From: an uncultured bacterium
GTDB taxonomy: Bacteria; Verrucomicrobiota; Verrucomicrobiia; Verrucomicrobiales; DEV007
Assembly: GCA_963977015.1 (NCBI GenBank)
Contig: CAXBMO010000014.1
Location: 96,001 to 160,000 of the forward strand
DNA length: 64,000 nucleotides
Reading direction: 5' to 3'
Position 1 is the stretch's first letter; each line of letters opens with the position of its first letter. Of the stretch, positions 9,001 through 21,200 are shown in pieces. The translations under genes were made by a program, and so were the position numbers. The notes beneath the pieces were generated by a model, which did not search any database, had not been told where the DNA came from, and saw only the letters and a program-made list of their open reading frames with translations.

Positions 9001-12000
9001 CTTCGACTTCAGCTCTTTGCCGAATGACAATGGCTGGTATGACATCGAAATCCGTTTTGCCAATGGCGCGGGGGGAGAAGGCGCGGTCTCGCGCGACTCG
9101 TGGACGACTTCCTTCGGATTCGCCTTGGCCAATCCGGCAACCGCGGATGAATTGCCGGGCGTGGATGCCGGTGTGCTGGATGGCTCCGACAAATCGGGCG
9201 TGCACTCTGAATTGACCGGCAACAACCCGGCTTGGCAGACGGCGGATGACCCGGGCGATGGCAGTTTGTTCCGGGTTTCGATGGAGGGCCGCGCCGGAAT
9301 CGTCAAGCAAGGCACCGGCACCCTGCGCCTCGAGGGCGACAGCACCTACCAGGGCCTGACCGATTTGCAGGCCGGCACGATTGAGGTGGCGTCGGCCACG
9401 GCTTTGGGCAGCGCGGATTCCGGAACGGATCTGTCCGATGGCACCACGCTTGCCTTCGATGGCACGTTCACGATTGCCGATGAGCCGATTTTGGTGGGCA
9501 ACAGCACCCTCCACAACCTGGCGGGTGACACCACCATCGCTACCACCATCACCGTGCAAGAGCGCGCAGGCGGGACGTTCACGCTGAGTTCGGATGCGGA
9601 CACGCTGACGATCTCCTCCGACCTGAACCTGAACCGCTCCGATCTGGACGTGACGGGCGATGGCGACGTGACGATTTCCGGGGTCTTGAGCGATGCGGGT
9701 GCGGCGACGGAAAGTGAATACGCGAGCCTTCTCCTCAACGAGGGGACGGACCTGAAAGCCTACTTCCGCCTGAACGAAGCGACCGGCACTTTGGAAGCGT
9801 TCGATTCGAGTTCGTATCGGGTGAATGGCACGTTCCAGGGCGGTGCGGAATCGACTCTGGAGGAGGCCAGTGCACATGCCAATCTGGGAACGGCGCTCGA
9901 TTTTGATGGAAGCAATGACTACATCGAGTTGGGCCAATCACCGGCTGATCTGGGACTGAACGGTCCCTTCACCGTATCCGCCTGGGTCAACGTGGATTCC
10001 TTCAAGCAGGACAACACGATCCTCGGCAACAGCGCAGGATCGTCGAACCAAGGCCTGCACCTGGTGATTCGCAACAGCCGGGCACACTTTGGCTTTTTCG
10101 GCAATGATACGGCCGGTTCGCAGGTGCTGACTGAGAACACCTGGTATCACGTGGTGTGGCGCTTTGACTCCAGCAATGGAGAACAGGCGATCTTCATTGA
10201 TGGGGCGCTGGACAACTCCAGCACCGGGCACGCGGCCTTCGCCGGAACTCAACCCGTCGATATTGGCCGCTGGAGAAACAGCAATTATTTTGATGGCACG
10301 ATGGACGACGTCGCCATCGTGGGCCGCGTCATGGACGACGCGGAAATCGCCGCGCTCTTTGCGGCAGGGCCGAACAACACGACGGTTAGTTACGATGCCG
10401 ATGTTACGAAGTCTGGGGCCGGAACCCTGACATTGTCCGGGGCGAACACCTACGCGGGTCAAACCACGGTTTCGGAAGGAATCTTGAAACTCGACAACGC
10501 CACGGCCTTGGGCACATCGACGGATGCTTCCGATGGCACGGTGGTGGAAGATGGTGGCGCCTTGGATTTGAATGGCGTGGATGTGCCCAACGAGATCGTT
10601 ACGATCAATGGCGACGGCGTTGTTGCCGATCCGGATACCGGTGCCTTGTACAACAGTGCGGGTAGTATGGGCAACAACGGGGTGGATAATCTCGTTTTGG
10701 GCAGCGATGCGTCGATCGGCAGCGATGGCGGGCGGTTTGGACTCAACGGCGGCACGGTATCAGGGGCATTCACCCTGACCAAGGTGGGCAACAACGATGT
10801 GTGGGTCGGTTCCACGGTCACGGTCGCCAACATCATTGTGGAGGATGGTGTCTACGGAATGCAGGGTAACAACGCGGATAATTTGTTGGCTGGCGGCGCG
10901 ATCACGATCAATGCCAATGGCACGCTGGGCACCTGGACGACGAAAACGTTTGATGCCGACATCGTCATGAACGGTGGCCGGATTGATACGGGAGCCCCAG
11001 GAGGGCAAAATAACACCGTAACGTTCAATGGTGATATTACGCTGAACGGGGCCAATAACCGGTTTCATATCGTAAATACGGCGGACGTCATTGCGACGGG
11101 AGTCATCAGCGGGGGCGGCGATTTGGTGAAGTCGGATAGTGGTGATCTTACGCTGACCAATGACAATACCTACGCGGGGACAACGGCCGTTAACACGGGA
11201 TCACTCCTGGTGAATGGATCCCACACGGGCGGTGACAACTACACTGTTGGCTCGACGGCGACGCTGGGGGGCAACGGAACGATCACTCTGCTCGACAACA
11301 GCAAATCCGTCACGGCATCGGGCACGGTGGCGACCGGCGATCCGACTACGGATTCGGGCATCGGCACCCTGACGGTCAACAACGACGTTAACTTGAACGG
11401 CGATTTTGACTTCCAGATCGATGGCGCTACCGCGGATTTGCTGGATGTTGATGGAGGGGTGAATCTGGATGCCGGTTCGACCCTGACGCTTTCCGACATC
11501 AACGATCCGGTCGACGGGTCGACCATCCTGCTGATCGACAACGATGACACCGATGCGGTGAACGGCACTTTCGGCACGGATTCGCGGTCCGGAACCGCAT
11601 TGACGGAAGGCGCAACGGTGACCGATGACGAAGGCGATGCCTATACCATCAGCTACGCCGGTGGCACGGACAGCAACGACGTGGTGCTCTTCGTGGGTGC
11701 GGCGGAGACCGAGGTGTCATTCTCCGGCGGCGTTCTCACCGTGACGGACATCAACAGCGATAGCGGAGATGACCTGACCATCAGCTACGATGCGTTGGCG
11801 GATGAATACGTCATCTCGGATGCCGCATTGAACCTGACCACGAACGGCCTGACCTCCGCCCAGGTGAAGCGTCCGGACGCCCGGACGGTTCGGGTGGATG
11901 CGGGCATCGTCACTTCGCTGGTGGTCCAGACTGCCAACACATCAGGTGACGGCAGCGACGATTCCGCCGACACGATTGGCATCAACGTTGCGAGCCTTCC

Positions 12001-15000
12001 CGCCTACCTCACCGGAGACGTCACGGTCACGGCGGAGACCATTCAATTGGACAGCGGCATCTCGGCCGGTGGTGATGTGACGTTGAATGGATCGACGACT
12101 CTAGGAGCGGCAGCTGCGCTGACTGCCAGCAACGTGAATTTGAACGGGACGATGAGCTTGGGCGCGAACAACCTGACGGTGAACGTCACCGGTGTGGGAG
12201 GGGCTTCAACCGGCGGAATTACCGGAAACGGCCAGCTCATCAAACAAGGCAACGGCACCTTCACGCTGAATGGCACGGGAACCAACAGCAACGGCTACAC
12301 GGGGTTGACGCACGTTCAAGGCGGCACGCTCGCGGTCGGCGGCAGCTTTGCCACGGATGGCGCAATTCAGGGCGACGTCACGATCGATGCCGGGGCGACC
12401 TTCGATTTGACCCAAAGCAACGTGATCGCCAACGGCAGTGACTTCACCATCAACGGCACGCTCGACATGAGCGGGCTGACTGAGGTGCTTGGGAACATTC
12501 AGGGCTCAGGCAGTATCATCAATCATACCAACAATGGCTCCAACGGCCTGACTCTGGATGATCTGAACGGCACCCACACTTTCGCGGGTGATATTTCCGG
12601 CGGCGGTTCGCTCAACATTCGCGGTAACATCGACGACAGCGGAACGCTGGAATTGTCTGGCGGGACGATCAGCCTCGGCAACCTGCGAATTGGCGATGGA
12701 ACGGTGACGATCAAGGATGACGCCACGGTAACCGCATTCAGCCAGACGGTGGTGGGAACGAATCGCACCGAAATTGCGGGGATCACCGCCGCTTCGGTCA
12801 CCGCAAGGCTGAACATCGAGTCCGGCAGTCTCACGACCGGTTCAATCATTACCGGAAACCGGGCTAGCGGCACGGTCACGGCGGTGATTGACCAATCGGG
12901 TGGCACCGTCCGCACCACCGGCAGCGCCGAAGAAGGCAACGGGGTCCGCATGTCCCATTGGGGCAATTCAGACACGACCTACACCCTGTCCAATGGAACG
13001 CTGACGATCGACAACGGGTTTGCCCTGAGCATGGCCACCACCGGCAACGGGCGATTTACCCAAACCGGCGGGACACTGAACACGACCAGCGTGGACGTGA
13101 ATTCCCGGACCGACGCGAACGGGAACGGAACCTTCGAGGTGCTGGGCGGAACCGCCAACATCGGTTCCGGTGGCATCGTGAGCGATTCAACCTCCAATCC
13201 GGGAACGGTCAACCTTGGCGGTCAGGGCGGCACCCTGCGAGCCACCGCGAATTGGGCATCCTCCCTCGATCTGAACTTGCTGGGAACCGGGGTGGACGTC
13301 ATCAACCTGGACACCAACGGGTTTGACGTCGGGCTGTCAGGTGGACTCAACGGAGTTGGCGGCTTTGACAAGCTGGGCGGCGGCACGTTGACCTTGAGCG
13401 GAACCAGCGACTACCAGGGTGATACGGATGTCGTCGCGGGAACTCTCCTCATCAACGGCGAACATTTGGCCGGCACGGTGGTGGCCGATTATCGCGATGA
13501 TTTCAGCACCACTCCGGCGACGGGTTGGCAGTATCTCTGGAATTCGGGCGGAGACGTTTCCGATCCGGCCAACTACACCGCGTTAGAGGTGGAGAACGAC
13601 CACTGGGAAACGGTGGCGAACGGCAGCTTTCCGGATCCAGCGCCGGGTTCGTATCTCAACCTCACCGGCACCAGCGGCCATCCAGGTTCCACGGACGTTT
13701 ACGCGATTGCCGCCTTTACCGTTCCGACAGCCGGCGATTATGCCATTACCAGCAGCTTCCTGGATCCGGTTACCGGAGCTGGTGACGGGAACGATGTCCG
13801 GATTTTCGTGAAGTCCGGGGCGGTGACGACGGAAGTCTTCTCCACCGCGACCGACGATGCCGTGATTGACTTCGACACGGCGCTGGGAACGCTTGGGGCT
13901 GGAGACGTCATCTATGTGGCGACCGGAACGGACGGTCTTGGTGCGGGCAACGATCCTGGCAATGACAGTTTCAACTGGGACTTCTCCATCTTGAGCCAGG
14001 CCACGAGCACGATCACGGTTCAGAGCGGTGCAACGCTCGGTGGGACAGGAAGTACCAATTCGGCGGTGAACGCGGCCGGAACGTTGAGCGCCGGTTCCCC
14101 GGTTAGCGGAATCGATTCTTTGGAAACTGGGAACCTGGATATAACGGGGACCCTGGAAGTGCAACTCAATGGGAACACCAGCGCGGATTTGATCGATGTG
14201 ACCGGGCCCGTCAATTTGGGTGGCGCCTCGATTCTGACGGTGTCTGGACTCGCACCTGCGAATGGTGCGACGATCACGATCATCGAGAACGATGGGACCG
14301 ATTTAGTGACCGGTCGTTTTACTTCCGACGGCTTCACCGTTTTGGAGGAGAGCGATATCGTCACGGTTGGCGGCGACCGCTACATCATCAGCTACGTGGG
14401 CGGGGATGGGAACGACGTGGTTCTGTTCAAGGGAGTGCCTGAAACGCAGGTTCATCTTGATGCTTCGGGCAATCTGACGATCAGCGATATTGAGAGCGAT
14501 AGCGCGGACTCGCTCACCATCACCTTCGACTCTTCAACCAATGAGTATGTCATCTCTGATGCGAATTTGAATTTGAGCGCAACAGGGTTTGATCGGGCCG
14601 ACGTTTCTCGCCCGGATGCGAAAACCGTGAGAGTGGCGGCGACTGCAGTCACGGGGAATGTGTTTGTGAACACGGCGTTCGGATCCGATTCGCAAACAGA
14701 CACGGTCACGATTGGAGGTGTGGATGCCTTGACTTTTTCGGGTGCGATCGAGATCACCGCAGAGTCGATTCTGATCGCAGGAACGGTGGTGGCCAATGGC
14801 GACGTGACCCTCACGGGGACCTCGCCGACCGGGACTGTAACGATCGCGGACGGGGCTGGTATCGATGCGGGGATTGGAAACATTGGAATTACCGCGGGCG
14901 CGGATATTCTGCTCGGTGGACTGAGCACGACGAATACCGCGACGATTCGTTCGCTCAATGGGTCGATCCTCGACAATGGAGATACCGATGTTGAGATCAT

Positions 15001-17533
15001 CGCCTCCAGCGCAGTTCTAAACGCGGCGGTCAGTATTGGAACGGCAACGAACTCATTGGAGACTCAAGTTTCAGCCCTGGAAGGATCCGCCGGGACAGAT
15101 CTCTATCTCAACAATCTGGGTGCTTTGAATCTTACCGCCGGAGGACTCTCCGTGACTCGGAATTTGGAGATCAACAGCGATCAAGGGATTACGGATTCCG
15201 GAGCCATTACCGTGGGGGGCGACGCCCTGTTCACAACGAGTGCAAACGACTCCGATATCACGCTGGATCAATTGGCTGTCGACGGAAGTATTGGGTTGAA
15301 CGCCTCAGGCGCGGGAAGTGATGTCACCATCGTCAATGCTACTGGAATCAACTTTCAAACTGGTGGCGCTGGCGGATTTCTCAGTGCGACGGCAACCACT
15401 GGGGATGTTCTGGTCGGTTCGGGAATTGCCATCAGCACGGGAGGTGCCTTAACGCTGGTTGCTGAAGATAACTTTACGTTGGATCCGAATGCTTCGCTCA
15501 ATGCTGCTTCCGTCGACATCCGCATTGACAACGGCAATGTCGGAGATGCCGTGGATGTCGTTCCGTTGGCTTTGGTGAGCGGAACCATCACGACGTCTAC
15601 CACTCCATTTGCAACTCCCGCGGGTGCGGGAACTGCCGGAACGCGGGTTACGGGTGGCGCCCGGACTGACATCTTTAGCTTGGCGCATAGTAACTCGGTC
15701 ATCTCTGTTTACGGCGGTGATCCGAGTGCGACGCCCGGGGATTCCATCGCCATTCAAACTCCGGGTAGCGCCTTGACTTCTGGGCCGGGCGCTGATCAAG
15801 GTCGTTTCTCCGCCAGCGGTTTCGAGGACATTCATTTCACCCAAATTGAAGACTTGGCGCTGAGCGGGGACTTGGTTCTAACCGGAACGGCAGGTGATGA
15901 TGTCCTGGAAATTAGTCCTATTGATTCCAATCAAGGAGTGATTCGTTTAACGAGCAATGGCACGCCGGGACTGGTCATCTCTTATGCCGGCCTAACTTCG
16001 TTGACCTTTAACGGCGCGGCTGGGAACGATGAATTGCTGATCCAATATCCTGACGGTATTGTCTTTGCTCCTGCCGGTGGCGTGACCTTTAACGGTGGTG
16101 GTGAGACGGATACGTTGACGATCAACGGAGCCACCCTGACCACATCGCTCGATGTCACCATGGGAAGTGCAACAACGCTTGGCGTGACCGCTTTCGACGC
16201 GACCGTTGGCGGCCCGGTCACCACGAATATTTCGATCTATAACGTGAGCAATACGACCTTGAATGGAGGATCGGCGGCGGACACCTTTTCGATTATACCC
16301 GGACCAACGACGACGTTCAGTGTGAATGGCGGGGATCCGGATCTCCTTCCGGGCGATCGCCTTGATGTAGTGGCAACGAACGGGACGATGCACGGTGGCA
16401 GGGATGTTGGTTCCGGTGTCTGGACCTTCCCCGGGGGGCTTCAGCCGATCAATTTCACAGGGATCGAAAGCGACGGCGTAACGCCGGTCCTGTCCGGAGT
16501 GAATGGGGCTTTGAGTCGTTTGACTCACGGACAGGGGAAAGGACCGCTGGGGCTCTTCCCGACCATCGTGGTGACCCAGGCATCGTTCCTCACCGAGGCC
16601 ATCATCCAGTTCGCTGGGGGATACCAGCCTGGTGAGGACGCGCTTCGCTCGATCGCTTTGCCAGCCGGATTCACTCAGAAGTTCGATCCCGCGTCCGGTC
16701 GCTTGACCATCACTGCTGGGGAAGAAGGTGCTTCTGCCTTGGACATGGAGGTTGCCCTGCGTTCTGTGGTCTACGAGAACAAGAATTTGACGGACCCGAC
16801 CCCTGGGACGCGGTCCATTGTCGTTGTCGTCTATGACATCAGTGGGCGTAGTAATGTCCTGACGGTTACCGTGACCCAGGAACGCGATCCGAAGTTGGTT
16901 GCCCCTGGCAATCAGAACTCCGCCTCGGTAATTGGAAGTGGAACTTCGCAAGGTGGGCAGCAGGGAGATGGTGGCCTTTCTGAGTTGCTTGCCCTCCTGA
17001 ACAGCTTTGGTGATGACGGCGTTTTCGCCGGATTCCGGGTTGATCCGTTGGAAGAAGGGGCAAATTACGGCTTCTTGAATGGTCAAATCGTAGGTCCGGA
17101 TGGAACTGCGGTGGATCTTGGCAATTTGAGTAGCGGACAGAGTAGCGTCTTGGCTTCGCTTCCACCGCTTTCGACACTGACTCCATTCTTTGCGGGCAGT
17201 TCGGGAGTTGGCTCTCAGGTCATCGTGACAATTAGCGATGGAGCTGGCGGTTTCAGCCAGACGATGACGGTTCAGACCGATTCCGCAGGAAACTGGTCGG
17301 CCGCATTTTTGGGGCTCACTCTGGAAGACCGAACCTACTCAGTGACCGTCCAAGAGGTTGCCGCAGTCATCGACGTGTTTGACGTGGAGAGAACGTTTCT
17401 ACGAGTTGGTCATTTTCATGGAGGAATCCTGCCGAATGGGGCTGATGATGAGGACCTGAGCCTTGGCGATATCTTCGGCATGATCATCGATACGGTGAAT
17501 CCGGAAGAAGCGCTGGAAAAGCTCGCTGAATAA
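2..17533 (+). CDS. Giant beta-helical adhesin-like surface protein 1 (5'-truncated, >5840 aa) with PATR repeats, MAM, LamG-like, PA14-like and C-terminal Ig-like domains
   Basis: The frame is open from position 2 (TDVTSDTQLDATT...), so the TTG at 26 is probably not the real start. Many LTKxGxGTLxLxGxNTYxGxTxVxxGxL repeats; Gly/Thr/Asp/Asn-rich; stop TAA at 17531-17533. Confidence 0.93.
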   Translation, partial: TDVTSDTQLDATTIAANKLTISGENIIGSGDTLNQVRFQAFASDDGGGTQGMFFDELHIENLEASATASWTNNVELATGSSSSITLDDFTSVDTLGTLTTNGAATLSVNSTTGAGALEFSGNSTLGGDLTVVTNDLSSLTLNNVSGSAGIIKDGNGTLILPTTNSYTGQTTVDDGRIQVSADGALGTTAAGTSVNNGGQLVISDTNYATLEALSIEGTGPNSDGALLGAGTSTFAGAVTVAGDAQIQSDDDLTLTGGIDTAGNEVLFQGEGNTTIDSGIVTGLGSLRKDGDGVLTVNTANDYAGATNIDGGVLVARHDTALGAAAGGTFVADGAQLRLENDITIGAGEAITLNGRGTNNNGALLNQSGANTVQGSVVLATDSEIEANDTLNLEGTLTLTGNLIADVNSGDTINVTGMVTGSGDIEKQDVGILILANGTNDFTGALDVDNGRVQVTADGALGGAGATNVASGATLEFAGAVNYTAAETINIAGIGESGSGALRSSGGDTAIGSSVTIDLTGDATIRSVGGTLTIDPNLDLDFNLELDGTGDFLVQGVISGIAGASLEKGGSGTARLTGTNTYLGDTVVADGILVVSNNSALGSPGEGTVVRDGATLAFDDQGGADLTIAGENFTIIGDGFLGTGAIRNDQGDNTLTGTIDVKVDSELGSGSATIASDADTLTIEGDVTFTQLTFNGDGDTVVNGQLMNGLSSETLLSQDFENFGGGQTDPGDSQILIEGWVNDTTDDVDWVSDQAGTGSGGTGPNVDNTLGTNSGTYMYVEASGVGTGGKTARMTSPVIDLTGFTAAQLDFFYHMHGDTIGTLSVQASTDGGTNWSGDLFSLTGEQQQSQGDPYQQAVVDLTPYAGANNLQLRVTNVTGSSFTSDIAVDDFRVTASTGAPTIGEVLKNGTGTTTLSGDNSYSGATTVAAGTLVVANNNALGTLATGTTVAAGATIALDNQGGADLSIAEDFTIRGEGVLGTGAIRNDQGQNVITGDITVPEALTMPVTTGLELHLDASNVASVIAADGTLDDGDLISGWNDFLGGDNTVANDAVQTDAAQQPRWIANAINGLPAIRFDPDAGNSSTDDDDMQITGLNLGNNASFFFVLQEAAQEPASGSALRPFFSGSGDSHSGNDHYAFTLSRPDLSDQFRINAAAGVSTAYSGIVNQNGDFHTYSYVRDGVDGELFRDGASAVTQSGLTGNATDSVYFIGGQDGNGARHYQGDIAEIIAFNRTLSAVERQQVESFLNEKYFGAGAAGGATIGAAAGGQLTIQGGVEFSDLTLNGAGEIAVEGVMSSQVGAAGTLTKDGTGTATLSGANTYAGETTVSDGILVAANDAALGNTGAGTTVADGAVLALDDTIPGAALTIAENITLGADAANPGVLRNVAGDNDVAGGVFAESGALGDIRIESASDTLTISGDVSLNQAGITVTGAGDTQIDGQILAGVTVVNTYDTTVLADNPLVYWRLGDGDQSNGATVDNVGTLDAAGDGTYLDTAGSIIETVADPAISGGDGIAIEGDKKEGVGLAFSGDFPGTTATFEGWFRGDDDPHSGGQYEPALFSYEGSGPGGGGNEFIALFSGNNLNIFGNGAASSTSITKGTLFNGNWRHLAITFDSTASGSGSASVYLDGQFVETVTNANWDADLSSSGQFVVGWEQDGALSNGNQSFQGFVGDMAEVAIYGSVLGAATIQNHYDEGLVTPVDPANTLTKSGSGTLTLTNANTYEDGTTVSEGTLLANNTSGSATGTGGVTVETNGILAGTGSVAGTISANSGGEVNPALSAPNDVTGDLGSGGANLATGGTFTVQIESTTPDTGFDQLDVAAGGTVTINGAALDVSILGTPGFAVGDKFKIIDNDGGSPVTVTSPFTVGGSAVPNGRAFEVTDDSGAGSTTYVFSILYNVDGDAADPRGTTGNDVVLFNFGEPETEVSINGDGHLVITDINSDSNDAITIEDDGTNYIIRDANLALTTTISGAERVDGNTIKVAKADVTGGGLIVNTANAADTTGVSDTVIIGGSTNPVSFTGPVTFNAEFVRFDQDLDATGNTVTFNAEVTMGADAELTAQDVAFNQAVTLSDKVLTVNVSGTGTANAVTAAGGGLTKDGGGTLTITGQIDDTGTGFSGVVNGGELKVQNTTNSLGESSSTWTVNSGGILEAVGNGSVSGLGSADVTLNSGELEFVMPPNPFTDAPGQLQARYWDYDVRGSQGSGGVSNGGIAEFDTLAGLEGLIATMGTPNFDVLLQGDLDFPAGGGNNSTSGNPFSSIGSLGNNDTMVAVWSGYVHIDPADYDGSLTTFFSASDDGTVVYVDGNLVVQNNRFQGVTERFGTYDLTPGDHEIVIAFYEGTGGAGVTANWQGTATGGAKTLVNPAAFSGTGGNSYFFTRELLASLDPDFDLTNNVTVSGSSTIELGAQVTSVTLDDLTMEEGATLTVESADMNQPLEFANTTLNGAATTTATIDTNMMPVVTLNNLSGAVDLDVTGDGTVILPTDNSAGFSGEITAKTATTIEITVNGALGDTSQGTVIEDGASLRMTGGFNYSLAESLTISGAGSPKSDGALHSETGDNDFSGAITIGSGTTTIRTSANSLDLFGGIDTNGANEVRFESVGTTRVQTAGIQGDGSVRKEDNGTLEFFVDSSYTGTTLINNGVIDIRTAAGLGTTAGSTTVNGSGTLRLRGGITVAENLTLNNGDGEGSQGVLRNDADANILTGTVTLSGTPRIDVDGGTTLTIEGAIGGGGDFFKTDSGTLVLDNSSNVNTYTGTSTIAGGTVIIQKDSALGTAAGGTILNAGTSLEFNLAGDYTVAESLTLGEGATVINRGSDTDLATTSITLQGDATIESATAGTTFSTAANIDLGFGNLTVIGDGDTSLTGDISNTAFVNDGNGNFFASGLIERVYDIRSVDDPFGATQLGASLQSGPRAGYTTTNQGPWAIDTTDETIVYTGQFYDADGIFSFAESIDDDVAIYIAGTRVLRNTSASVATTTATTSGINNSNESGNANPDGGTFDFSSLPNDNGWYDIEIRFANGAGGEGAVSRDSWTTSFGFALANPATADELPGVDAGVLDGSDKSGVHSELTGNNPAWQTADDPGDGSLFRVSMEGRAGIVKQGTGTLRLEGDSTYQGLTDLQAGTIEVASATALGSADSGTDLSDGTTLAFDGTFTIADEPILVGNSTLHNLAGDTTIATTITVQERAGGTFTLSSDADTLTISSDLNLNRSDLDVTGDGDVTISGVLSDAGAATESEYASLLLNEGTDLKAYFRLNEATGTLEAFDSSSYRVNGTFQGGAESTLEEASAHANLGTALDFDGSNDYIELGQSPADLGLNGPFTVSAWVNVDSFKQDNTILGNSAGSSNQGLHLVIRNSRAHFGFFGNDTAGSQVLTENTWYHVVWRFDSSNGEQAIFIDGALDNSSTGHAAFAGTQPVDIGRWRNSNYFDGTMDDVAIVGRVMDDAEIAALFAAGPNNTTVSYDADVTKSGAGTLTLSGANTYAGQTTVSEGILKLDNATALGTSTDASDGTVVEDGGALDLNGVDVPNEIVTINGDGVVADPDTGALYNSAGSMGNNGVDNLVLGSDASIGSDGGRFGLNGGTVSGAFTLTKVGNNDVWVGSTVTVANIIVEDGVYGMQGNNADNLLAGGAITINANGTLGTWTTKTFDADIVMNGGRIDTGAPGGQNNTVTFNGDITLNGANNRFHIVNTADVIATGVISGGGDLVKSDSGDLTLTNDNTYAGTTAVNTGSLLVNGSHTGGDNYTVGSTATLGGNGTITLLDNSKSVTASGTVATGDPTTDSGIGTLTVNNDVNLNGDFDFQIDGATADLLDVDGGVNLDAGSTLTLSDINDPVDGSTILLIDNDDTDAVNGTFGTDSRSGTALTEGATVTDDEGDAYTISYAGGTDSNDVVLFVGAAETEVSFSGGVLTVTDINSDSGDDLTISYDALADEYVISDAALNLTTNGLTSAQVKRPDARTVRVDAGIVTSLVVQTANTSGDGSDDSADTIGINVASLPAYLTGDVTVTAETIQLDSGISAGGDVTLNGSTTLGAAAALTASNVNLNGTMSLGANNLTVNVTGVGGASTGGITGNGQLIKQGNGTFTLNGTGTNSNGYTGLTHVQGGTLAVGGSFATDGAIQGDVTIDAGATFDLTQSNVIANGSDFTINGTLDMSGLTEVLGNIQGSGSIINHTNNGSNGLTLDDLNGTHTFAGDISGGGSLNIRGNIDDSGTLELSGGTISLGNLRIGDGTVTIKDDATVTAFSQTVVGTNRTEIAGITAASVTARLNIESGSLTTGSIITGNRASGTVTAVIDQSGGTVRTTGSAEEGNGVRMSHWGNSDTTYTLSNGTLTIDNGFALSMATTGNGRFTQTGGTLNTTSVDVNSRTDANGNGTFEVLGGTANIGSGGIVSDSTSNPGTVNLGGQGGTLRATANWASSLDLNLLGTGVDVINLDTNGFDVGLSGGLNGVGGFDKLGGGTLTLSGTSDYQGDTDVVAGTLLINGEHLAGTVVADYRDDFSTTPATGWQYLWNSGGDVSDPANYTALEVENDHWETVANGSFPDPAPGSYLNLTGTSGHPGSTDVYAIAAFTVPTAGDYAITSSFLDPVTGAGDGNDVRIFVKSGAVTTEVFSTATDDAVIDFDTALGTLGAGDVIYVATGTDGLGAGNDPGNDSFNWDFSILSQATSTITVQSGATLGGTGSTNSAVNAAGTLSAGSPVSGIDSLETGNLDITGTLEVQLNGNTSADLIDVTGPVNLGGASILTVSGLAPANGATITIIENDGTDLVTGRFTSDGFTVLEESDIVTVGGDRYIISYVGGDGNDVVLFKGVPETQVHLDASGNLTISDIESDSADSLTITFDSSTNEYVISDANLNLSATGFDRADVSRPDAKTVRVAATAVTGNVFVNTAFGSDSQTDTVTIGGVDALTFSGAIEITAESILIAGTVVANGDVTLTGTSPTGTVTIADGAGIDAGIGNIGITAGADILLGGLSTTNTATIRSLNGSILDNGDTDVEIIASSAVLNAAVSIGTATNSLETQVSALEGSAGTDLYLNNLGALNLTAGGLSVTRNLEINSDQGITDSGAITVGGDALFTTSANDSDITLDQLAVDGSIGLNASGAGSDVTIVNATGINFQTGGAGGFLSATATTGDVLVGSGIAISTGGALTLVAEDNFTLDPNASLNAASVDIRIDNGNVGDAVDVVPLALVSGTITTSTTPFATPAGAGTAGTRVTGGARTDIFSLAHSNSVISVYGGDPSATPGDSIAIQTPGSALTSGPGADQGRFSASGFEDIHFTQIEDLALSGDLVLTGTAGDDVLEISPIDSNQGVIRLTSNGTPGLVISYAGLTSLTFNGAAGNDELLIQYPDGIVFAPAGGVTFNGGGETDTLTINGATLTTSLDVTMGSATTLGVTAFDATVGGPVTTNISIYNVSNTTLNGGSAADTFSIIPGPTTTFSVNGGDPDLLPGDRLDVVATNGTMHGGRDVGSGVWTFPGGLQPINFTGIESDGVTPVLSGVNGALSRLTHGQGKGPLGLFPTIVVTQASFLTEAIIQFAGGYQPGEDALRSIALPAGFTQKFDPASGRLTITAGEEGASALDMEVALRSVVYENKNLTDPTPGTRSIVVVVYDISGRSNVLTVTVTQERDPKLVAPGNQNSASVIGSGTSQGGQQGDGGLSELLALLNSFGDDGVFAGFRVDPLEEGANYGFLNGQIVGPDGTAVDLGNLSSGQSSVLASLPPLSTLTPFFAGSSGVGSQVIVTISDGAGGFSQTMTVQTDSAGNWSAAFLGLTLEDRTYSVTVQEVAAVIDVFDVERTFLRVGHFHGGILPNGADDEDLSLGDIFGMIIDTVNPEEALEKLAE
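2135..2685 (+). other. MAM-like domain in giant protein 1
   Basis: QDFE...WVNDTTDDVDW...TGSGGTGPNVDNTLG...GTYMYVEAS...ARMTSP...FFYHMHGDTIGTLSV...SDIAVDDF matches the MAM pattern. Confidence 0.85.
3011..3760 (+). other. LamG/concanavalin-A-like jelly-roll domain
   Basis: GLELHLDAS...ISGWND...NAINGLPAIRFD...YQGDIAEIIAFNRTLSAVERQQVESFLNEKY, a pattern common in PVC surface proteins. Confidence 0.75.
4358..5095 (+). other. LamG/pentraxin-like jelly-roll domain
   Basis: VLADNPLVYWRLGD...TFEGWF...WRHLAITFD...VYLDG...VVGWEQD...FVGDMAEVAIYGSVL. Confidence 0.8.
6560..7145 (+). other. PA14 domain
   Basis: GQLQARYW...WSGYVHI...TFFSASDDGTVVYVDGNLVVQN...LTPGDHEIVIAFYEGTGGAG; SDDG is the PA14 hallmark. 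Confidence 0.85.
8650..9285 (+). other. PA14-like domain (divergent)
   Basis: ETIVYTGQFY...FSFAESIDDDVAIYIAG...GWYDIEIRFANGAGGEG. Confidence 0.65.
9716..10370 (+). other. LamG-like jelly-roll domain
   Basis: LKAYFRLNE...ALDFDGSNDYI...FTVSAWV...WYHVVW...IFIDG...IGR...FDGTMDDVAI. Confidence 0.85.
13470..13997 (+). other. Aromatic-rich globular domain of unknown family, possibly carbohydrate-binding
   Basis: VADYRDDFS...GWQYLWN...HPG...YAIAAFTVP.AGDYAI...AGDVIYVATG...NDSFNWDFSI interrupts a PATR repeat. Confidence 0.5.
16475..17533 (+). repeat. Conserved C-terminal module (cadherin-like domain, linker, Ig-like domain, acidic tail), copy 1
   Basis: Clearly paralogous to 54735-55779, e.g. GQSSVLAxLPPLSTLTPFFAGSS and DDEDLxLGDIFGMIIDT...PEEAxxKLAE-stop. 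Confidence 0.9.
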
Positions 17534-17714
17534 TCGGCCAGTCAAAGATTAGGAGTACTTCGGTAAAATGGAGGGAAGCTGTAAAAATGGTGGCTAAAAC
17601 GTCACAGATTTGGTATTTCTGACAACCATTGTTGAAGAGTCGGTCTGTCTACTCAGCGCAAACTTTCAGGCGTTTTCATCATTAAATCCCCTTCAGAAGA
17701 TTCCCTCGTATCAT

Positions 17715-18160
17715 TGGCGCCCGACCATGTGACCTATTTCGTGTCGGCGGACGAAGCGGTGTGTACTAACTACGAAGTCCACAATTCGATTGACGACGAC
17801 GGTGTGTCGTTGGTGTCCGAAGCCCCTGAATACGAGAGGATTAGCACGCATAAGGAGGGCCGCTCGGATGCCGTCGTCTATTGCTCTTGGGCGAAAGAGT
17901 TTGATCCATCGAAGACGGTGACGAGGTGCGCTCGGAGTAGAGTTTGCCAATCGGTATCAAGCCATCTGAAGCGAAAAGTTCAGACGTTGGCCGACAAGAA
18001 GATCAGCTTTGAACGATTTTACGGAAGTTGCCAAAGCCGCCACGTTGGATCCGGGGACGATGACAGGAAGTCACGTTCTGCGCTTCCATTTGCTTTCTAC
18101 ATTTCATCATTCCTCCAAAAGCCACCAAAAGGCCGCCCCATGGGCCTTGGTGGCTTTTTC
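17715..18160 (+). ncRNA. Candidate large structured RNA (5' leader of giant gene 2 or stand-alone ncRNA); family not recognised
   Basis: Dense complementary stems read by eye: ccgac/gtcgg, ggac/gtcc, ttcgat/atcgaa, gacgac+ggtgtccga/tcggatgcc+gtcgtc, gctctt/aagagt, tctgaa/ttcaga, gctttg/caaagc, ggacg-tgac/gtca-cgttc; ends in a terminator. Confidence 0.5.
18117..18159 (+). terminator. Intrinsic (Rho-independent) terminator hairpin, possibly bidirectional
   Basis: aaaagccaccaa[aa]ggcc-gccccatg-ggccttggtggctttt: 16 paired positions with a 2-nt bulge, T5 tract at 18155-18159 and A4 on the 5' side. Confidence 0.8.
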
Positions 18161-18219
18161 ATCGGGAAATTGGATTCACTCCCCGGTTACGAATTACCAT
18201 TTTCTTTCAGTCCCAGTTT

Positions 18220-21200
18220 ATGACCCCCTCTATACTTAAGCGGCTTCAAGCCATCTTAAATCGCGACTCCGGCAGTCAGCGTCAGCTTCAAATGGAACAG
18301 TTGGAGCCTCGGATTCTTTATTCAGCAGCCCCAGTTGAGGCCGCGCCTGAAGCAGAGATGAGTTCCGAGCCTGCGCAAAATGCACCAGCTGCCGCGCCTG
18401 CGGATGAATCGTCCCACGCGGCAGATCCTGCTCCGGCACAAGGGGAAAATTCTGCAGCGTCAATCTTGGAGACCGAGGTCGTGGTCTTGCCAGAAACTAC
18501 CGAGGCTGCAGATTCGACCTACCCCGGAGGGGAGGCGAGTGGAGACGTAGCTGCTGGCAACGAGTTGGATCAGCAGATGTTGGAAAATATCGCGGCTGCC
18601 GCGGCAGATCGTTGGGCGGAGTCCGGTTTGAGCGCGGAGCAAAGCGCGGCGTTGAGCAACGTGGTTTACGAGATCGCCGACCTGAGCGGCAATCACCTGG
18701 GAGCAGCGGAAGGTAACGTTGTCACCATCGATATTGACGCTGCGGGACACGGCTGGTTTGTCGACGAAACGCCATTGCAGGACGAGGAGTTCGTGGCTGA
18801 CATCGGTACGCCAACCCGGCTGTTTTCAACGGATCCGAATGGGCGGATGGATTTGCTGACGGTATTACTGCACGAGCAGGGACACATTTTAGGATTGGAC
18901 CATGAGGAAACGAATGCATCGAGTGTGATGTACGACACGTTCTGGGCAGACGAACGTGTCTTGATCGATGAAGGACAGGCTGCGGGCGCGGTCGCGGGGA
19001 GTTTGGAAGGGATCCATTCCGCCACGACCGACACGGTGATCGCCGGTTACGATTTCGATGACGGGACTGACGATGACGGCACGGCAACCGTCACCGCTGG
19101 TGAGGCGGACAATGCCACCGCGGCGGTGACTGTGAAGAATGCAAATGTCACTGCGAGTGATTTTAGTGTTGGCGCGGGGCTCAAGTTTCTGATCAATCAG
19201 GATAACGGCAACAGCAATTTCAGTGACCTCGACGCGGAAGGGAATGAATTTGGAACCGAAAACGGTTTCGAGTTCGGTGGGGCTCAAAACGCTTTTGAGT
19301 TCACCGACATGGACAACAACAATAACCTCGGGTTGGCGATCACTAACGATGACTACATGGCCTTCACGGTGACCCCGGATGAACGGTATGAGATGGATCT
19401 GTCCAATTTTACCTTTTTGTCCAGAGTAAACAACACCAACAATTCGGCAGAACGTTGGGCTTTATTTTCTTCAATCGATGGGTTCGCCGAAGGTGATCAG
19501 ATCGGAGAGGGACGAAATAATGGAAATGACGGCCAGTACAATGCTTTTACGGTTGGTTTGTCCGATCCGAAATTCCAGAATCTCACCGAAGCAACAGAAT
19601 TTCGACTCTACATCTACGGAGGAAATCAAACTTCCAATTCCGCCACACTGTTCGACAAAGTCATCGTCAACGGCACGACCGTCCCGACGGTCGTCTACGT
19701 CGATGATAACTGGGCTGCTGGCGGGAGCGATCCTCAGAGCAATGGCCAGGCGATAACTGACGCGGACTTAGGGACTTCGTCAGATCAAGGTGCCGTGTAT
19801 GGCGATAACGGTTTTGCAACGGTCGAAGCCGCGCTTGCAGCGGTGGCGGATGGAGGAACGGTCATCATCAATCAAGGCACCTATGCTGAAAATCTGAACC
19901 TTTCCAAAGCGGTGACCTTTCAGGTGACTGGACCAAATGTGGAACAAACCGCGACGATCAGCGGAGAGATTTCAGGGGTGGAAGCGCTGACGAAGTCCGG
20001 TTCGGGGACTTTGGTGGTGAGTGGAGACAACACCTACTCTGGCGGGACAACGATTTCACAGGGAACATTGTCGACGACCACTAATTCCACGGCGCTCGGC
20101 ACCGGGACCGTGAACATGAATGGTGGAATCCTGCGGACGACGGTTAGTCTGGGCAACGAGATCAGCTTGAACGATGTGACCACAACCACTTCGAACACGA
20201 TTGAAGTGGATGGCAACTACCATGTTCTCAGTGGTAAGGTTACTGGAGCCGGAGGTTTGACCGTGGGGAAGGTCGGCGGCGGAAACGACGGCTTGGCGTT
20301 GTCCAATTCGGCGAACGACTTTCAGGGTGACTTAACTATTACGGGTAGCAGCGCTTTCCTTCGACTTGATACCGATGGCGTCATTCCTGATACTGCTAAC
20401 GTTCTTGTGGGTAATGGCGCGGCCCTCCGACTGGAAGGGGATGCCCGAACGGAGACCATCGCGGGTCTCAGCGGCGGTGGTCGGATTTTTGCAGTGAATT
20501 CTGGCGGTGGGGCCACGCTGATCGTCGGAGCTGGCGATGCCACGAGTGAATTTTCGGGTCAGATTGGTGGCGGCGGCGCCAACAACAAGAATATCAGTCT
20601 GGAGAAGATCGGGAACGGAACGTTCACGTTGGCGGGAACGACTTCGGACTACACCGGCACCACCACTATCACTAGCGGTATTTTGCGAGCGGATGCGGCG
20701 GATGTTGTCGCTACGTCAGGAGCTTTGGGCGTCGGTAATATTACGTTCTCTGGGGGCACGTTGCAGTACACCGTGAACAGCGCGGGCACCGATTACAGTG
20801 CTCGTATCGTCGACAGCTCCAGTGCGATTACGCTCGATACCAACGGTCAGGAGGTCACTTTGAGCAATGACTTTGCTAGCACCAACACTGGCGGCTTGAC
20901 CAAACTCGGAACGGGAACGCTGACAGTGGAGTTTCCAGATACGGGGAGCTACGATGGTCTCACCAGGGTCGATGGAGGAGAGTTGAAGGTACTGAATGAT
21001 GACGGGGCACTGCAAAGATGGCGGGCCGGTAATTTCGAAATCAACAATGGCTCCACTTTGGAAATTGGAGGAGACGACACCACTGTCTTTCAAGGATTAA
21101 CATGGACCTTCGATAGCAATGGAGGGGGTACGGTTAATTTGGTGGGAAATACCATTTTCCAGACTAACAACAATACGTTCGTAACCACAGGTGGATTGAA

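Follow-up and report, generated by a model that had tools for sequence, protein, structure and literature searches.

Results and Discussion

We report that the segment of DNA directly upstream of a giant gene in the analysed window (a 64,000-nt stretch of a bacterial contig) is not a structured RNA but a small protein-coding gene, here called the leader, with a length of 169-195 codons (17636/17714-18223). The leader open reading frame is conserved at the protein level, is paired with giant genes of the LEPR-XLL type, and recurrently encloses a terminator-shaped hairpin. To explain the locus as a whole, we favour a conserved leader gene whose embedded hairpin gates the expression of the giant gene, a reading to which we give about an even chance of being correct. 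The original prediction, which interpreted about 440 nt of this segment (17715-18160) as RNA, missed the open reading frame and its conservation.

Organization of the locus

The leader lies between two giant genes on the forward strand, which also carries all the other features described below. The upstream one (giant gene A) is represented in the window by its 3' part (2-17533), with the frame open from the window edge, the start outside the window, and the TAA stop codon at 17531-17533 according to the list of open reading frames. The complete frame on contig C14 comprises 8,967 codons, includes the LEARILYS motif of this LEPR-XLL gene, and is itself preceded by a leader ORF and a hairpin of its own. 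The spacer that separates giant gene A from the leader frame (17534-17635) has a low G+C content (0.44-0.475 vs 0.53-0.62 in the flanking genes), contains three further stops in the reading frame of the leader, and may be regarded as a candidate promoter or 5' UTR region; a site scan of the spacer found no sigma-70-like site. Within it lies a conserved DNA element, TCACAGATTTGGTATTTCTGACAAC (17602-17626), which aligns with elements located before the orthologue in genome G002 and before the C37 paralogue, and which can also be seen by eye before C3_205538, C3_184353 and C14_86650. This element is possibly a promoter or an operator; loose patterns that describe it have matches genome-wide and are hence non-specific.

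The leader open reading frame (17636-18223 in the ORF list and its translation; 195 codons from stop to stop) ends with TGA at 18221-18223. Its candidate start codons are TTG at 17714 (the first canonical one, which would give 169 codons), GTG at 17729 and GTG at 17741. The four C3 paralogues share a conserved ATG start (M-V-I/T-S) a few codons past an in-frame stop; the start of the window's leader is uncertain, because its frame contains no ATG and a 1-nt shift, itself compensated, is part of the similarity to the G002 leader ahead of TTG 17714. At the other end, both the sequence and the ORF list place the leader TGA in an ATGA overlap (18220-18223) with the ATG of giant gene B, and a corresponding overlap of leader stop and giant-gene start was found in five members (the window's leader, C5_116908, L068, L080 and L086). 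Giant gene B (18220-55779; 37,560 nt, 12,519 codons) is indeed the 37.5-kb gene described earlier as lying downstream of the segment. It has an N-terminal LEPR-XLL domain, and its product matches the LEPR-8K family NF012209 at residues 23-45 with 26.7 bits (cut-off 17), one of the 14 such matches in the window's genome.

Evidence for a coding sequence

A six-frame protein search with the segment identified an orthologue in G002, a genome of the same genus (35% identity, E 7e-12); the window's own genome yielded a paralogue as well. At the DNA level no homologues were detected in three same-genus genomes and 37 other relatives, save for a weak match to the hairpin region in G032 (E 2.2e-4). The similarity is restricted to one frame: same-frame translations score 72, 36.6 and 46.2 bits, and the other two frames 11-24 bits (23.9 and 11.2 bits for the 72-bit comparison). 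Differences at the first, second and third codon positions amount to 0.47, 0.52 and 0.67 per codon, 34 of the 58 identical residues are encoded by different codons, and the homologues differ at synonymous third positions within the codons of the family motif [YF]xx[LF][FY]G. All seven paralogue pairs compared show pS greater than pN (dN/dS 0.23-0.61), whereas in each of the two control frames pS and pN are roughly equal. The leader frame has the highest codon score of the six frames in each of 10 leaders; the scores themselves range from -0.10 to +0.15, and in nine of the 10 leaders they fall under the 5th percentile of real genes (0.127). Among the DNA contigs of four runs, X1 alone differs from the window (about 97% identical), with four synonymous and five non-synonymous codon changes in the leader, which indicates that constraint over this short range is weak, these changes being too few for a firm dN/dS. 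A search for RNA sequencing runs that contain the sequence returned none.

The weak codon usage, the lack of a predicted fold, the uncertain start codon and the narrow taxonomic range are features that a decaying remnant or a functionless chance ORF might also display. Nonetheless, we consider such an origin of the leader frame very improbable, as no member has an interrupted frame, all seven pairs show dN/dS below 1 with flat controls, the motifs are invariant and have a fixed spacing, and the placement relative to the giant genes is fixed in four genomes.

Evidence against a large structured RNA

The complementary stems quoted in the original prediction do exist: ttcgat (17785-90) can pair with atcgaa (17908-13), gacgac (17792-97) with gtcgtc (17873-78), and ggtgtccga (17812-20) with tcggatgcc (17864-72), and the two hairpins with GCGAAA at their tips are found at 17883-17900 and 17965-17984. 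Most of these stems are included in the minimum-free-energy fold of the segment. In comparison with shuffled sequences, there is no excess of folding: the forward strand of 17715-18160 folds at -151 kcal/mol vs -144.6 +/- 6.4 kcal/mol for the shuffles (z -1.01, with 14 of 100 shuffles equal), the reverse strand gives z -1.25, and 17715-18110, from which the terminal hairpin is left out, gives z +0.50 with 71 of 100 shuffles folding equally well. The corresponding z-scores for two homologous leaders are -0.87 and +0.36. Neither is the pairing conserved, as only 57 and 48 of the 124 non-terminator pairs are kept (46% and 39%) when the window's minimum-free-energy pairs are mapped to two homologues, the same level as in slid controls (39-44%). 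A small hairpin at 18006-18037 retains 84.6% of its pair cells in three sequences; it coincides with the conserved FERFYG codons.

Searches against Rfam yielded no match at the gathering score in the whole 64-kb window, and permissive filters applied to 17450-18300 returned three chance-level matches (E 0.22-9.1, far under the gathering score), the best of them to an unrelated flavivirus stem-loop (E 0.22) situated on the terminator. The earlier failure to assign the segment by eye to a known RNA family is borne out by covariance models, those for EAR, riboswitches, T-box, RNase P and tmRNA included.

A riboswitch-like, EAR-like or stand-alone RNA with an incidental open frame would accord with the many local stems that can be drawn, with the retention of the hairpin at 18006-18037, and with the terminator that comes next. 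Against it stand the z-scores listed above, the chance-level retention of pairs in the homologues, the absence of any meaningful Rfam match up to E 10, the conservation, which is tied to one frame and centred on the first two codon positions, and the position of the sole retained hairpin on the FERFYG codons. We therefore regard the proposal of a large structured RNA as already largely refuted and attach next to no probability to it. One part of the original prediction survives, namely that the segment may be a cis-regulatory leader of the attenuator type with a terminator; the part that postulated a ligand-sensing RNA fold finds no support. If there is an attenuator at this locus, it would act via translation of the leader ORF and not via such a fold.

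The terminator-shaped hairpin

Within the segment, exceptional folding is confined to a hairpin followed by a T run (18116-18160; stem 18120-18155, extendable by A/T pairs), which has the shape of an intrinsic terminator and lies inside the leader frame. The stretch 18114-18164 folds at -26.5 kcal/mol, and none of 200 shuffles is as stable; with z -5.06 the terminator proposed earlier for the end of the segment is a strong hairpin, and its T run ends, as had been stated, 60 nt before the ATG at 18220. A terminator scan of 17300-18500 reports one site, with 1.2 +/- 1.2 expected from shuffles. The region 18012-18178 contains no substitution between the window and its approximately 97% identical relative.

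Hairpins that differ in sequence, each followed by a T run, occur at the equivalent position in paralogues and orthologues, with z-scores from -5.06 to -1.2 across leaders and 35-124 nt between the T run and the giant ATG. Their stems vary in sequence between subfamilies, and an A-T to G-C exchange is seen among those of the C3 paralogues. According to our own criteria, a hairpin with a T run is present in the last 100 nt of eight of the 13 giant-gene upstream regions vs 48 of 1,500 random windows, and it can be seen by eye in two more of the upstream regions. The tract that precedes the hairpin has a mild excess of C over G in six of eight leaders.

The hairpin is typically enclosed by the coding frame. 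Among the 14 leaders in which both have been located, the frame crosses the whole hairpin in 13 and stops inside it in one (C3_231860), as judged by eye from the coordinates. The ends of 13 placed leader frames range from 102 nt before the giant ATG to an overlap with it, four of them falling at or on the ATG. Past the [YF]xx[LF][FY]G motif, 30-71 codons follow before the leader frame closes (median 56, from 17 of the 18 leaders in which the motif was detected; in the 18th the frame extends beyond the sequence retrieved), and the median open lengths of the other two frames are 30 and 28 codons. The leader frame is the longest of the three in seven of the 18 cases, a weak control partly because one of the other frames is that of the giant gene itself. 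In the window's genome, sites with a hairpin and a T run are found after 38 of 698 stop codons vs 33 of 698 positions inside ORFs; this lack of enrichment at gene ends counts against taking such hairpins as established terminators, and their use as terminators by the organism is putative.

It could be argued that the hairpin is a plain terminator or insulator for the upstream giant gene or for the small gene, that the promoter of giant gene B follows it, and that the small ORF is an ordinary, poorly conserved one with no regulatory link to the giant gene. The leaders in the window and in the C3 array are indeed situated between tandem giant genes, and the hairpin in the window has an A run on one side and a T run on the other, which would make bidirectional action possible. 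However, leader and hairpin are likewise present before the first gene of the C3 array and in G002, where the orthologue follows a non-giant gene; a search of the 35-124 nt between the T run and the ATG revealed no sigma-70-like site; and in 13 of 14 cases the stop codon of the ORF lies beyond the hairpin, so that termination there would yield mRNAs without a stop codon. Moreover, hairpins of this kind do not mark gene ends in general in the window's genome, and the leader stop overlaps the giant ATG in five members. We thus find the insulator explanation improbable, and a hairpin functionally linked to the leader and to the giant gene seems to us a better account.

Distribution and pairing with giant genes

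To judge from the genomes and databases searched, the leader family is found only in the window's genus. A profile search of 134 genomes of the family-level group gave 16 matches, all in this genus and all 16 located on the same strand as, and directly upstream of, an ORF that carries the LE[PAQ]R[VIL]LYS motif of giant LEPR-XLL genes. In the window's genome 10 of the 13 giant genes are preceded by a leader, and inspection of 13 further loci of the genus added seven more leader-like frames. A narrow profile built from three sequences, run against 401 genomes of the order, recovered only the window's genome and G002 aside from weak matches, and one further match in G294 (E 0.008). The weak matches in G164 and G057 lie off-frame inside large conserved genes and were discarded as spurious. 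Large protein databases yielded three members only: P0005, which hardly differs from the copy in G002, P0007, and P0006, the window genome's own paralogue. A scan of JGI metagenomes with alignment A1 yielded none, and a scan of all species genomes returned the G002 contig alone, with search patterns derived from subfamily A only, so that members of other subfamilies may be missed.

The orthologous leader in G002 is preceded by a non-giant gene, which indicates that the leader travels with the gene downstream of it. Furthermore, the groups formed by the leaders agree with those formed by the N-terminal sequences of their giant genes, which suggests that the unit was duplicated as a whole. The literature on LEPR-XLL appears, by its titles and abstracts, unrelated to the question of the leader, and among the matches listed for "giant genes" together with Planctomycetes no title or beginning of an abstract concerns leaders or terminators.

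The leader peptide

The leader ORFs are 140-230 codons long and encode peptides of a common layout: an acidic N-terminal part with EAPE-like motifs, a Ser-Trp pair, about 40 basic residues, the motif [YF]xx[LF][FY]G, and a variable tail that is encoded across the terminator-shaped hairpin and the T run. The Ser-Trp codons of the window's leader (17885-17890) specify S84 and W85, the sole invariant columns in the 12-sequence alignment A3, and the family motif, here SFERFYG, is encoded at 18005-18025 (alignments A1 and A3). The spacing between Ser-Trp and the motif is 39-41 residues in eight of the nine paralogues measured, and the basic segment contains 15-28% Arg+Lys. Subfamilies A and B are homologous with moderate support (hhalign 89.8%, E 1.8e-6); the relationship of subfamily C to the others is unsupported, its motifs being matched by eye only.

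We found no similarity of the leader to families in the databases: 12 members had nothing under E 0.087 in Pfam-A, and of four members compared with NCBIfam three had no family at all and one had a chance match (E 0.26). AlphaFold predicted no confident fold for the leader peptide (pLDDT 37.7), the best score in the ESM Atlas was 0.81, below a meaningful level, and no hydrophobic N-terminal stretch was seen on inspection of the leader peptides. As the sequence of the peptide is under selection, it suggests a role beyond the mere passage of the ribosome, exerted either by the nascent chain or by the released protein.

Possible mechanisms

The arrangement of the leader, the hairpin and the giant gene resembles that of the pyrBI (pyrL) system, and by analogy a translation-coupled gate can be envisaged, to which we assign somewhat less than an even chance. 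In this scenario, the hairpin would halt or pause RNA polymerase 60 nt before the giant gene, and a ribosome translating the leader close behind the polymerase would keep the hairpin from forming. The same ribosome would terminate at or near the start of the giant gene and re-initiate there, so that a gene of 7-38 kb would be transcribed only under ongoing, coupled translation. That the hairpin terminates transcription, that the ribosome suppresses this and that translation is handed over are all steps that we infer from the layout of the locus. A model in which the ribosome serves purely as a blocker of the hairpin fails to explain a peptide of 140-230 residues under purifying selection.

On the other hand, the leader might encode a small trans-acting protein co-expressed with the giant gene, such as a gene-specific regulator or antiterminator, or an accessory protein or chaperone. 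Its basic segment could bind its own hairpin, like lambda N on boxB, the protein being small and disordered; the hairpin would then serve the protein as its RNA target, or would adjust the relative amounts of the two products as a partial terminator, and the passage of the ribosome would be incidental. This possibility is in agreement with the purifying selection on the amino-acid sequence, with the conserved motifs at a spacing of 39-41 residues, with the succession of an acidic N-terminal part and a basic segment of 15-28% Arg+Lys, and with the absence of a predicted fold, as expected of a disordered protein. Each giant gene, moreover, is accompanied by a separate paralogue and a distinct hairpin sequence, and the leader groups track the N-terminal groups of the giant genes, in keeping with duplication of the whole unit. 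However, common ancestry would by itself account for the match between subfamily and hairpin sequence, a hairpin that serves as a target needs neither a T run nor a place in its own coding frame, and transcripts that end at the hairpin would lack a stop codon. In addition, the codon usage is poor for a protein that accumulates, and there is no similarity to any Pfam or NCBIfam family, antiterminators included. With these arguments on both sides, a trans-acting protein is a possibility that we rate as rather unlikely.

It is tempting to extend the translation-coupled gate to a scenario in which each giant gene possesses its own licensing module, where the nascent chain or the product of the leader would sense the state of the cell (such as its capacity for translation or for export of a giant surface protein) and would decide, at the embedded hairpin, on the release of the polymerase and the first ribosome together. 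This extension is speculative, and we consider it doubtful. If true, it would reveal that giant genes have a control system of their own, which duplicates and whose sequence-specific leader protein has no counterpart in any described attenuator.

Significance

To our knowledge, essentially no study has addressed how bacteria regulate genes of 20-40 kb and bring their expression to completion. One genome with 13 giant LEPR-XLL genes has the same compact module before most of them, in which a conserved leader ORF encloses a terminator-shaped hairpin and stops at or near the giant start. The recurrence of this module suggests that genes of very high cost are under an on/off gate of their own, and it provides a concrete and easily testable handle on their regulation. 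The proteins encoded by giant genes have been noted as a huge metabolic burden (PMC5177795), and in the portions of that giant-gene genome paper available to us the words "upstream" and "terminator" and words beginning with "transcri-" are absent. The leaders also add a protein family without a database match. Finally, there is a lesson in the observation that an "intergenic" stretch of normal GC content, full of drawable stems, turned out to be a gene, a status that was settled by the shuffle control together with the six-frame homology search.

Comparison with known systems

The leaders of pyrBI-type attenuators, among which the rph-pyrE attenuator is similar to that of pyrBI, are short (tens of codons), and their peptides are not conserved. 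With Escherichia coli pyrBI (pyrL) the locus described here shares a leader ORF on the same strand directly upstream of the regulated gene, as well as a hairpin, followed by a T/U run, that the ORF contains internally or at its end; in our case this hairpin is a terminator in form only. In pyrBI the terminator is located inside the 135-bp leader ORF, and a closely following ribosome represses this intrinsic terminator (PMC4824070). Formation of the pyrL terminator is prevented only by tight coupling across pyrL, and stalling of the ribosome upstream of the terminator raises termination (PMC5021804). The differences are also considerable: in place of 135 bp there are 140-230 codons, and the pyrL peptide has no known role of its own, whereas the peptides described here are conserved (dN/dS 0.23-0.61) and have invariant motifs. 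In addition, the leaders form a set of paralogues, one per giant gene, no U-rich pause region of the UTP-sensing kind was identified here, and the regulated genes are giant and of the surface type instead of serving pyrimidine synthesis.

The leader tnaC of the tryptophanase operon, 24 codons long, acts by blocking Rho at a rut site. In that operon, termination just upstream of the structural genes is governed by leader translation, as we propose for the present locus; unlike tnaC, the leaders described here contain a structure of the intrinsic-terminator shape, and the tract before it shows no more than a mild excess of C over G, in six of eight cases.

SecM, MifM and VemP are encoded by ORFs of about 90-170 codons directly upstream of the controlled gene, and the sequence of the peptide matters. 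They act in cis through the position of the ribosome on the mRNA, with an N-terminal signal or membrane segment and a C-terminal arrest motif, and they unmask a ribosome-binding site. By contrast, the N-terminal part of our leaders is acidic, their conserved motif is found 30-71 codons before the stop, and the structure downstream resembles a transcription terminator.

The lambda N protein is small and disordered, and binds a hairpin by an arginine-rich segment. Unlike lambda N, the leader has no sequence match to any Pfam family and, unlike EAR, the segment has no match in Rfam, EAR included; compared with both systems, the hairpin here is peculiar in that it lies inside a coding frame and is followed by a T run. 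What the giant genes have in common with lambda N and EAR is the need to carry RNA polymerase through a very long transcription unit.

Layout of the locus and evidence for a coding leader

On the forward strand, giant gene A, which crosses the left edge of the window and ends at 17533, is separated by a gap of 686 nt (17534-18219) from giant gene B (18220-55779, 12,519 codons), whose start carries an LEPR-XLL domain (NF012209, 26.7 bits; cut-off 17). Within this gap a reading frame on the same strand is open from 17636 over 195 codons, and its stop codon, TGA at 18221-18223, shares bases with the ATG of gene B. The frame contains no ATG in the window; its first canonical start is a TTG at 17714, a candidate that gives 169 codons. 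The G+C content is 0.55 in 17700-18000, as in the flanking genes, and 0.44-0.475 in 17500-17700.

We regard it as very probable that this segment is the coding leader of a family associated with giant genes. A DNA-level search of 40 relatives yielded no homologue and only one weak match, on the hairpin region described below; a six-frame protein search revealed an orthologue in G002, a relative from the same genus (35% identity, E 7e-12), together with a paralogue encoded on contig C37 of the genome that contains the window. Both copies are open frames of 195-198 codons, which end 10 and 50 nt before an LEPR-XLL giant gene. By four sequence-based tests, it is the protein that is conserved. The same-frame translations score 72, 36.6 and 46.2 bits, compared to 11-24 bits for the other two frames at the same offset; the differences per codon position amount to 0.47, 0.52 and 0.67; and 34 of the 58 identical residues are encoded by different codons. 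In all seven closer paralogue pairs pS (0.52-0.70) exceeds pN (0.24-0.40), with dN/dS of 0.23-0.61, while the two values are roughly equal in each of the two control frames. Of the six frames, the leader frame also has the best codon-usage score in all 10 leaders. On the other hand, these scores themselves (-0.10 to +0.15) are low compared to those of real genes (0.30 +/- 0.10), the frame in the window lacks an ATG, and the contigs of a relative of ~97% identity exhibit only 4 synonymous versus 5 non-synonymous codon changes, all of which count against coding.

The leader family and its giant genes

According to a motif scan, the LEPR motif occurs near the N-terminus of 13 giant ORFs (2,361-12,571 codons) in the window's own genome, located on contigs C14, C12, C3 (four in tandem), C5, C6, C37, C11, C2 and C23. 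In front of ten of these lies an open frame of 144-236 codons, and these frames are built alike: the N-terminal part is acidic and bears EAPE/PERE-like motifs, a Ser-Trp pair is invariant, 39-41 mostly basic residues separate it from a [YF]xx[LF][FY]G motif, and the tail is variable. Homology of the window's subgroup with the four C3 copies in tandem has support from profile-profile comparison (89.8%, E 1.8e-6), which that of the C5/C23 pair lacks; this pair is counted in the family by motifs and position only. The groups of leaders parallel the groups formed by the N-terminal sequences of their giant genes, and thus leader and gene seem to have been duplicated as a unit.

A profile built from 12 sequences and run against 134 genomes of the family-level group found matches in the window's genus alone (all four genomes) and in none of the 130 genomes of 29 other genera. 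All 16 matches lie directly upstream of an LEPR-motif ORF on the same strand, and 7 more leader-like frames occur among 13 further LEPR loci of the genus; as the genus is known from only four assemblies, these counts over paralogues and orthologues are not independent. The LEPR-XLL genes themselves are more widespread (20 of 41 relatives), and in the other genera none of the 17 giant-gene starts examined has such a leader or hairpin, 3 of the 20 loci having been left out for want of a start by the search pattern. No match to the leader family was found in Pfam or NCBIfam, large protein collections contain only three members, a scan of JGI metagenomes retrieved none, and AlphaFold predicted no fold for the leader (pLDDT 37.7).

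Upstream of the leader frames, a conserved element, TCAC..A(A/T)TTGG(C/T)A..CTG(G/A)A(T/C)A (17602-17626 in the window), is found at a distance of 10-60 nt in five or six loci, which are the window and the leaders in L004, L011, L019, L020 and L025. It may be a promoter or operator; loose patterns derived for it were unspecific across the genome.

Several features of the giant genes themselves deserve mention. In gene A, whose start lies outside the window (L025, contig C14, 85651-87100), 'MTDKTPP...', situated ~29 codons before LEARILYS, resembles the N-termini of other giant genes, and the first ATG of its open frame is probably not the true start. The leader frame of gene A ends at this 'MTDKTPP...' start, with a hairpin at positions 1011-1051 of L025. 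A zincin-like HExxH motif, 'LMHEQGHILGL', is kept near the N-terminus of giant protein B (residues ~210-254, window about 18850-18980), of the C37 protein and of the G002 orthologue, in loci L004 and L011; a weak match to a metalloprotease family (NF041905) has an E of 5.6e-4 and falls well short of the cut-off. In 4 of 4 metagenome runs, other contigs match a 47-nt piece of gene A (17225-17271), differing from it at 5 positions and having a loose end on either side; this piece is probably a repeat unit common to giant genes.

The segment as RNA

The original prediction interpreted 17715-18160 as a structured RNA of ~440 nt ending in a terminator. Its stems were all found where it had placed them, most of them in the minimum-free-energy fold, and the terminator-like hairpin is real (18114-18164, -26.5 kcal/mol, z -5.06, none of 200 shuffles as stable), with a T run that ends 60 nt upstream of the ATG of gene B. 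What did not hold is folding of the whole segment beyond chance: the 446 nt reach -151 kcal/mol versus -144.6 +/- 6.4 in dinucleotide shuffles (z -1.01), 14 of 100 of which are as stable. The opposite strand gives z -1.25, the segment without the hairpin z +0.50, and two homologous leaders z -0.87 and +0.36. Nor is the pairing kept, as the window's fold, mapped onto the homologues, leaves 57 and 48 of 124 non-terminator pairs possible, the same level as in slid controls (39-44%); the overall figure of 61.7% is too high, one of the three rows having supplied the structure. The small hairpin at 18006-18037, the one that is kept, coincides with conserved codons. In Rfam, the whole window has no match at the gathering score, and when E values of up to 10 are allowed, no match rises above chance level. 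On the grounds of folding, pairing and Rfam taken together, the structured-RNA reading is rejected.

The hairpin and its possible role in the control of the giant genes

Of the 13 regions upstream of giant genes, 8 contain within their last 100 nt a single hairpin (-12 kcal/mol or lower) with a T run behind it, versus 48 of 1,500 random windows; two more were found by eye, once gene A was taken to begin at its probable true start, and others precede giant genes in the other genomes of the genus. The stems are wholly unlike between subfamilies, with an A-T to G-C exchange among the C3 copies, and the T run, often TTTTCGTG-like, always comes next. In most leaders it commonly extends beyond the hairpin (18155-18164 in the window) as TTTT(T)CGTG, TTTCGTYG or TTTTCATCG; more sequence is kept here than a T run alone needs. 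By our reading of the coordinates, 13 of 14 leader frames cross the hairpin entirely and the remaining one has its stop within it; where the end of the frame was placed (13 leaders), its position ranges from 102 nt upstream of the giant ATG to an overlap with this codon, 4 of the frames ending at or on the ATG.

Throughout the window's genome, sites with a hairpin and T run are not enriched after the stops of long ORFs (38 of 698 in the following 100 nt versus 33 of 698 inside ORFs), and therefore "terminator" is here the name of a shape and not of an activity. As the usual end of a gene, intrinsic terminators of such shape thus seem to be rare in this organism, and their clustering ahead of giant genes is all the more conspicuous. 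It is unlikely that the hairpin serves the preceding gene as an insulator or terminator, since in G002 the orthologue comes after a non-giant gene, the module is also present at the first gene of the C3 array, and the leader's own stop lies past the hairpin.

The arrangement is like that of the Escherichia coli pyrBI attenuator, where the regulated gene is immediately preceded by a leader ORF with a terminator-shaped hairpin in its 3' end. According to the relevant passages of two papers (PMC4824070, PMC5021804), a closely following ribosome blocks formation of the hairpin in pyrBI, and termination increases when ribosomes lag or stall. By this analogy we tentatively propose that a translation-coupled gate could control the giant gene, a possibility to which we give slightly less than even weight: polymerase would enter the giant gene only if the leader were translated in step, and the ribosome at the leader stop would be handed over to the ATG of the giant gene. 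Passage of the ribosome alone does not explain the conserved peptide, which might act as a nascent chain or, in trans, as a small disordered protein; we consider this rival reading less likely than the translation-coupled gate, and the two are not mutually exclusive. The finding makes the control of giant genes directly testable. The family of leader ORFs with an embedded hairpin before giant genes is new and genus-restricted, and represents a variant of the leader-ORF attenuator theme.
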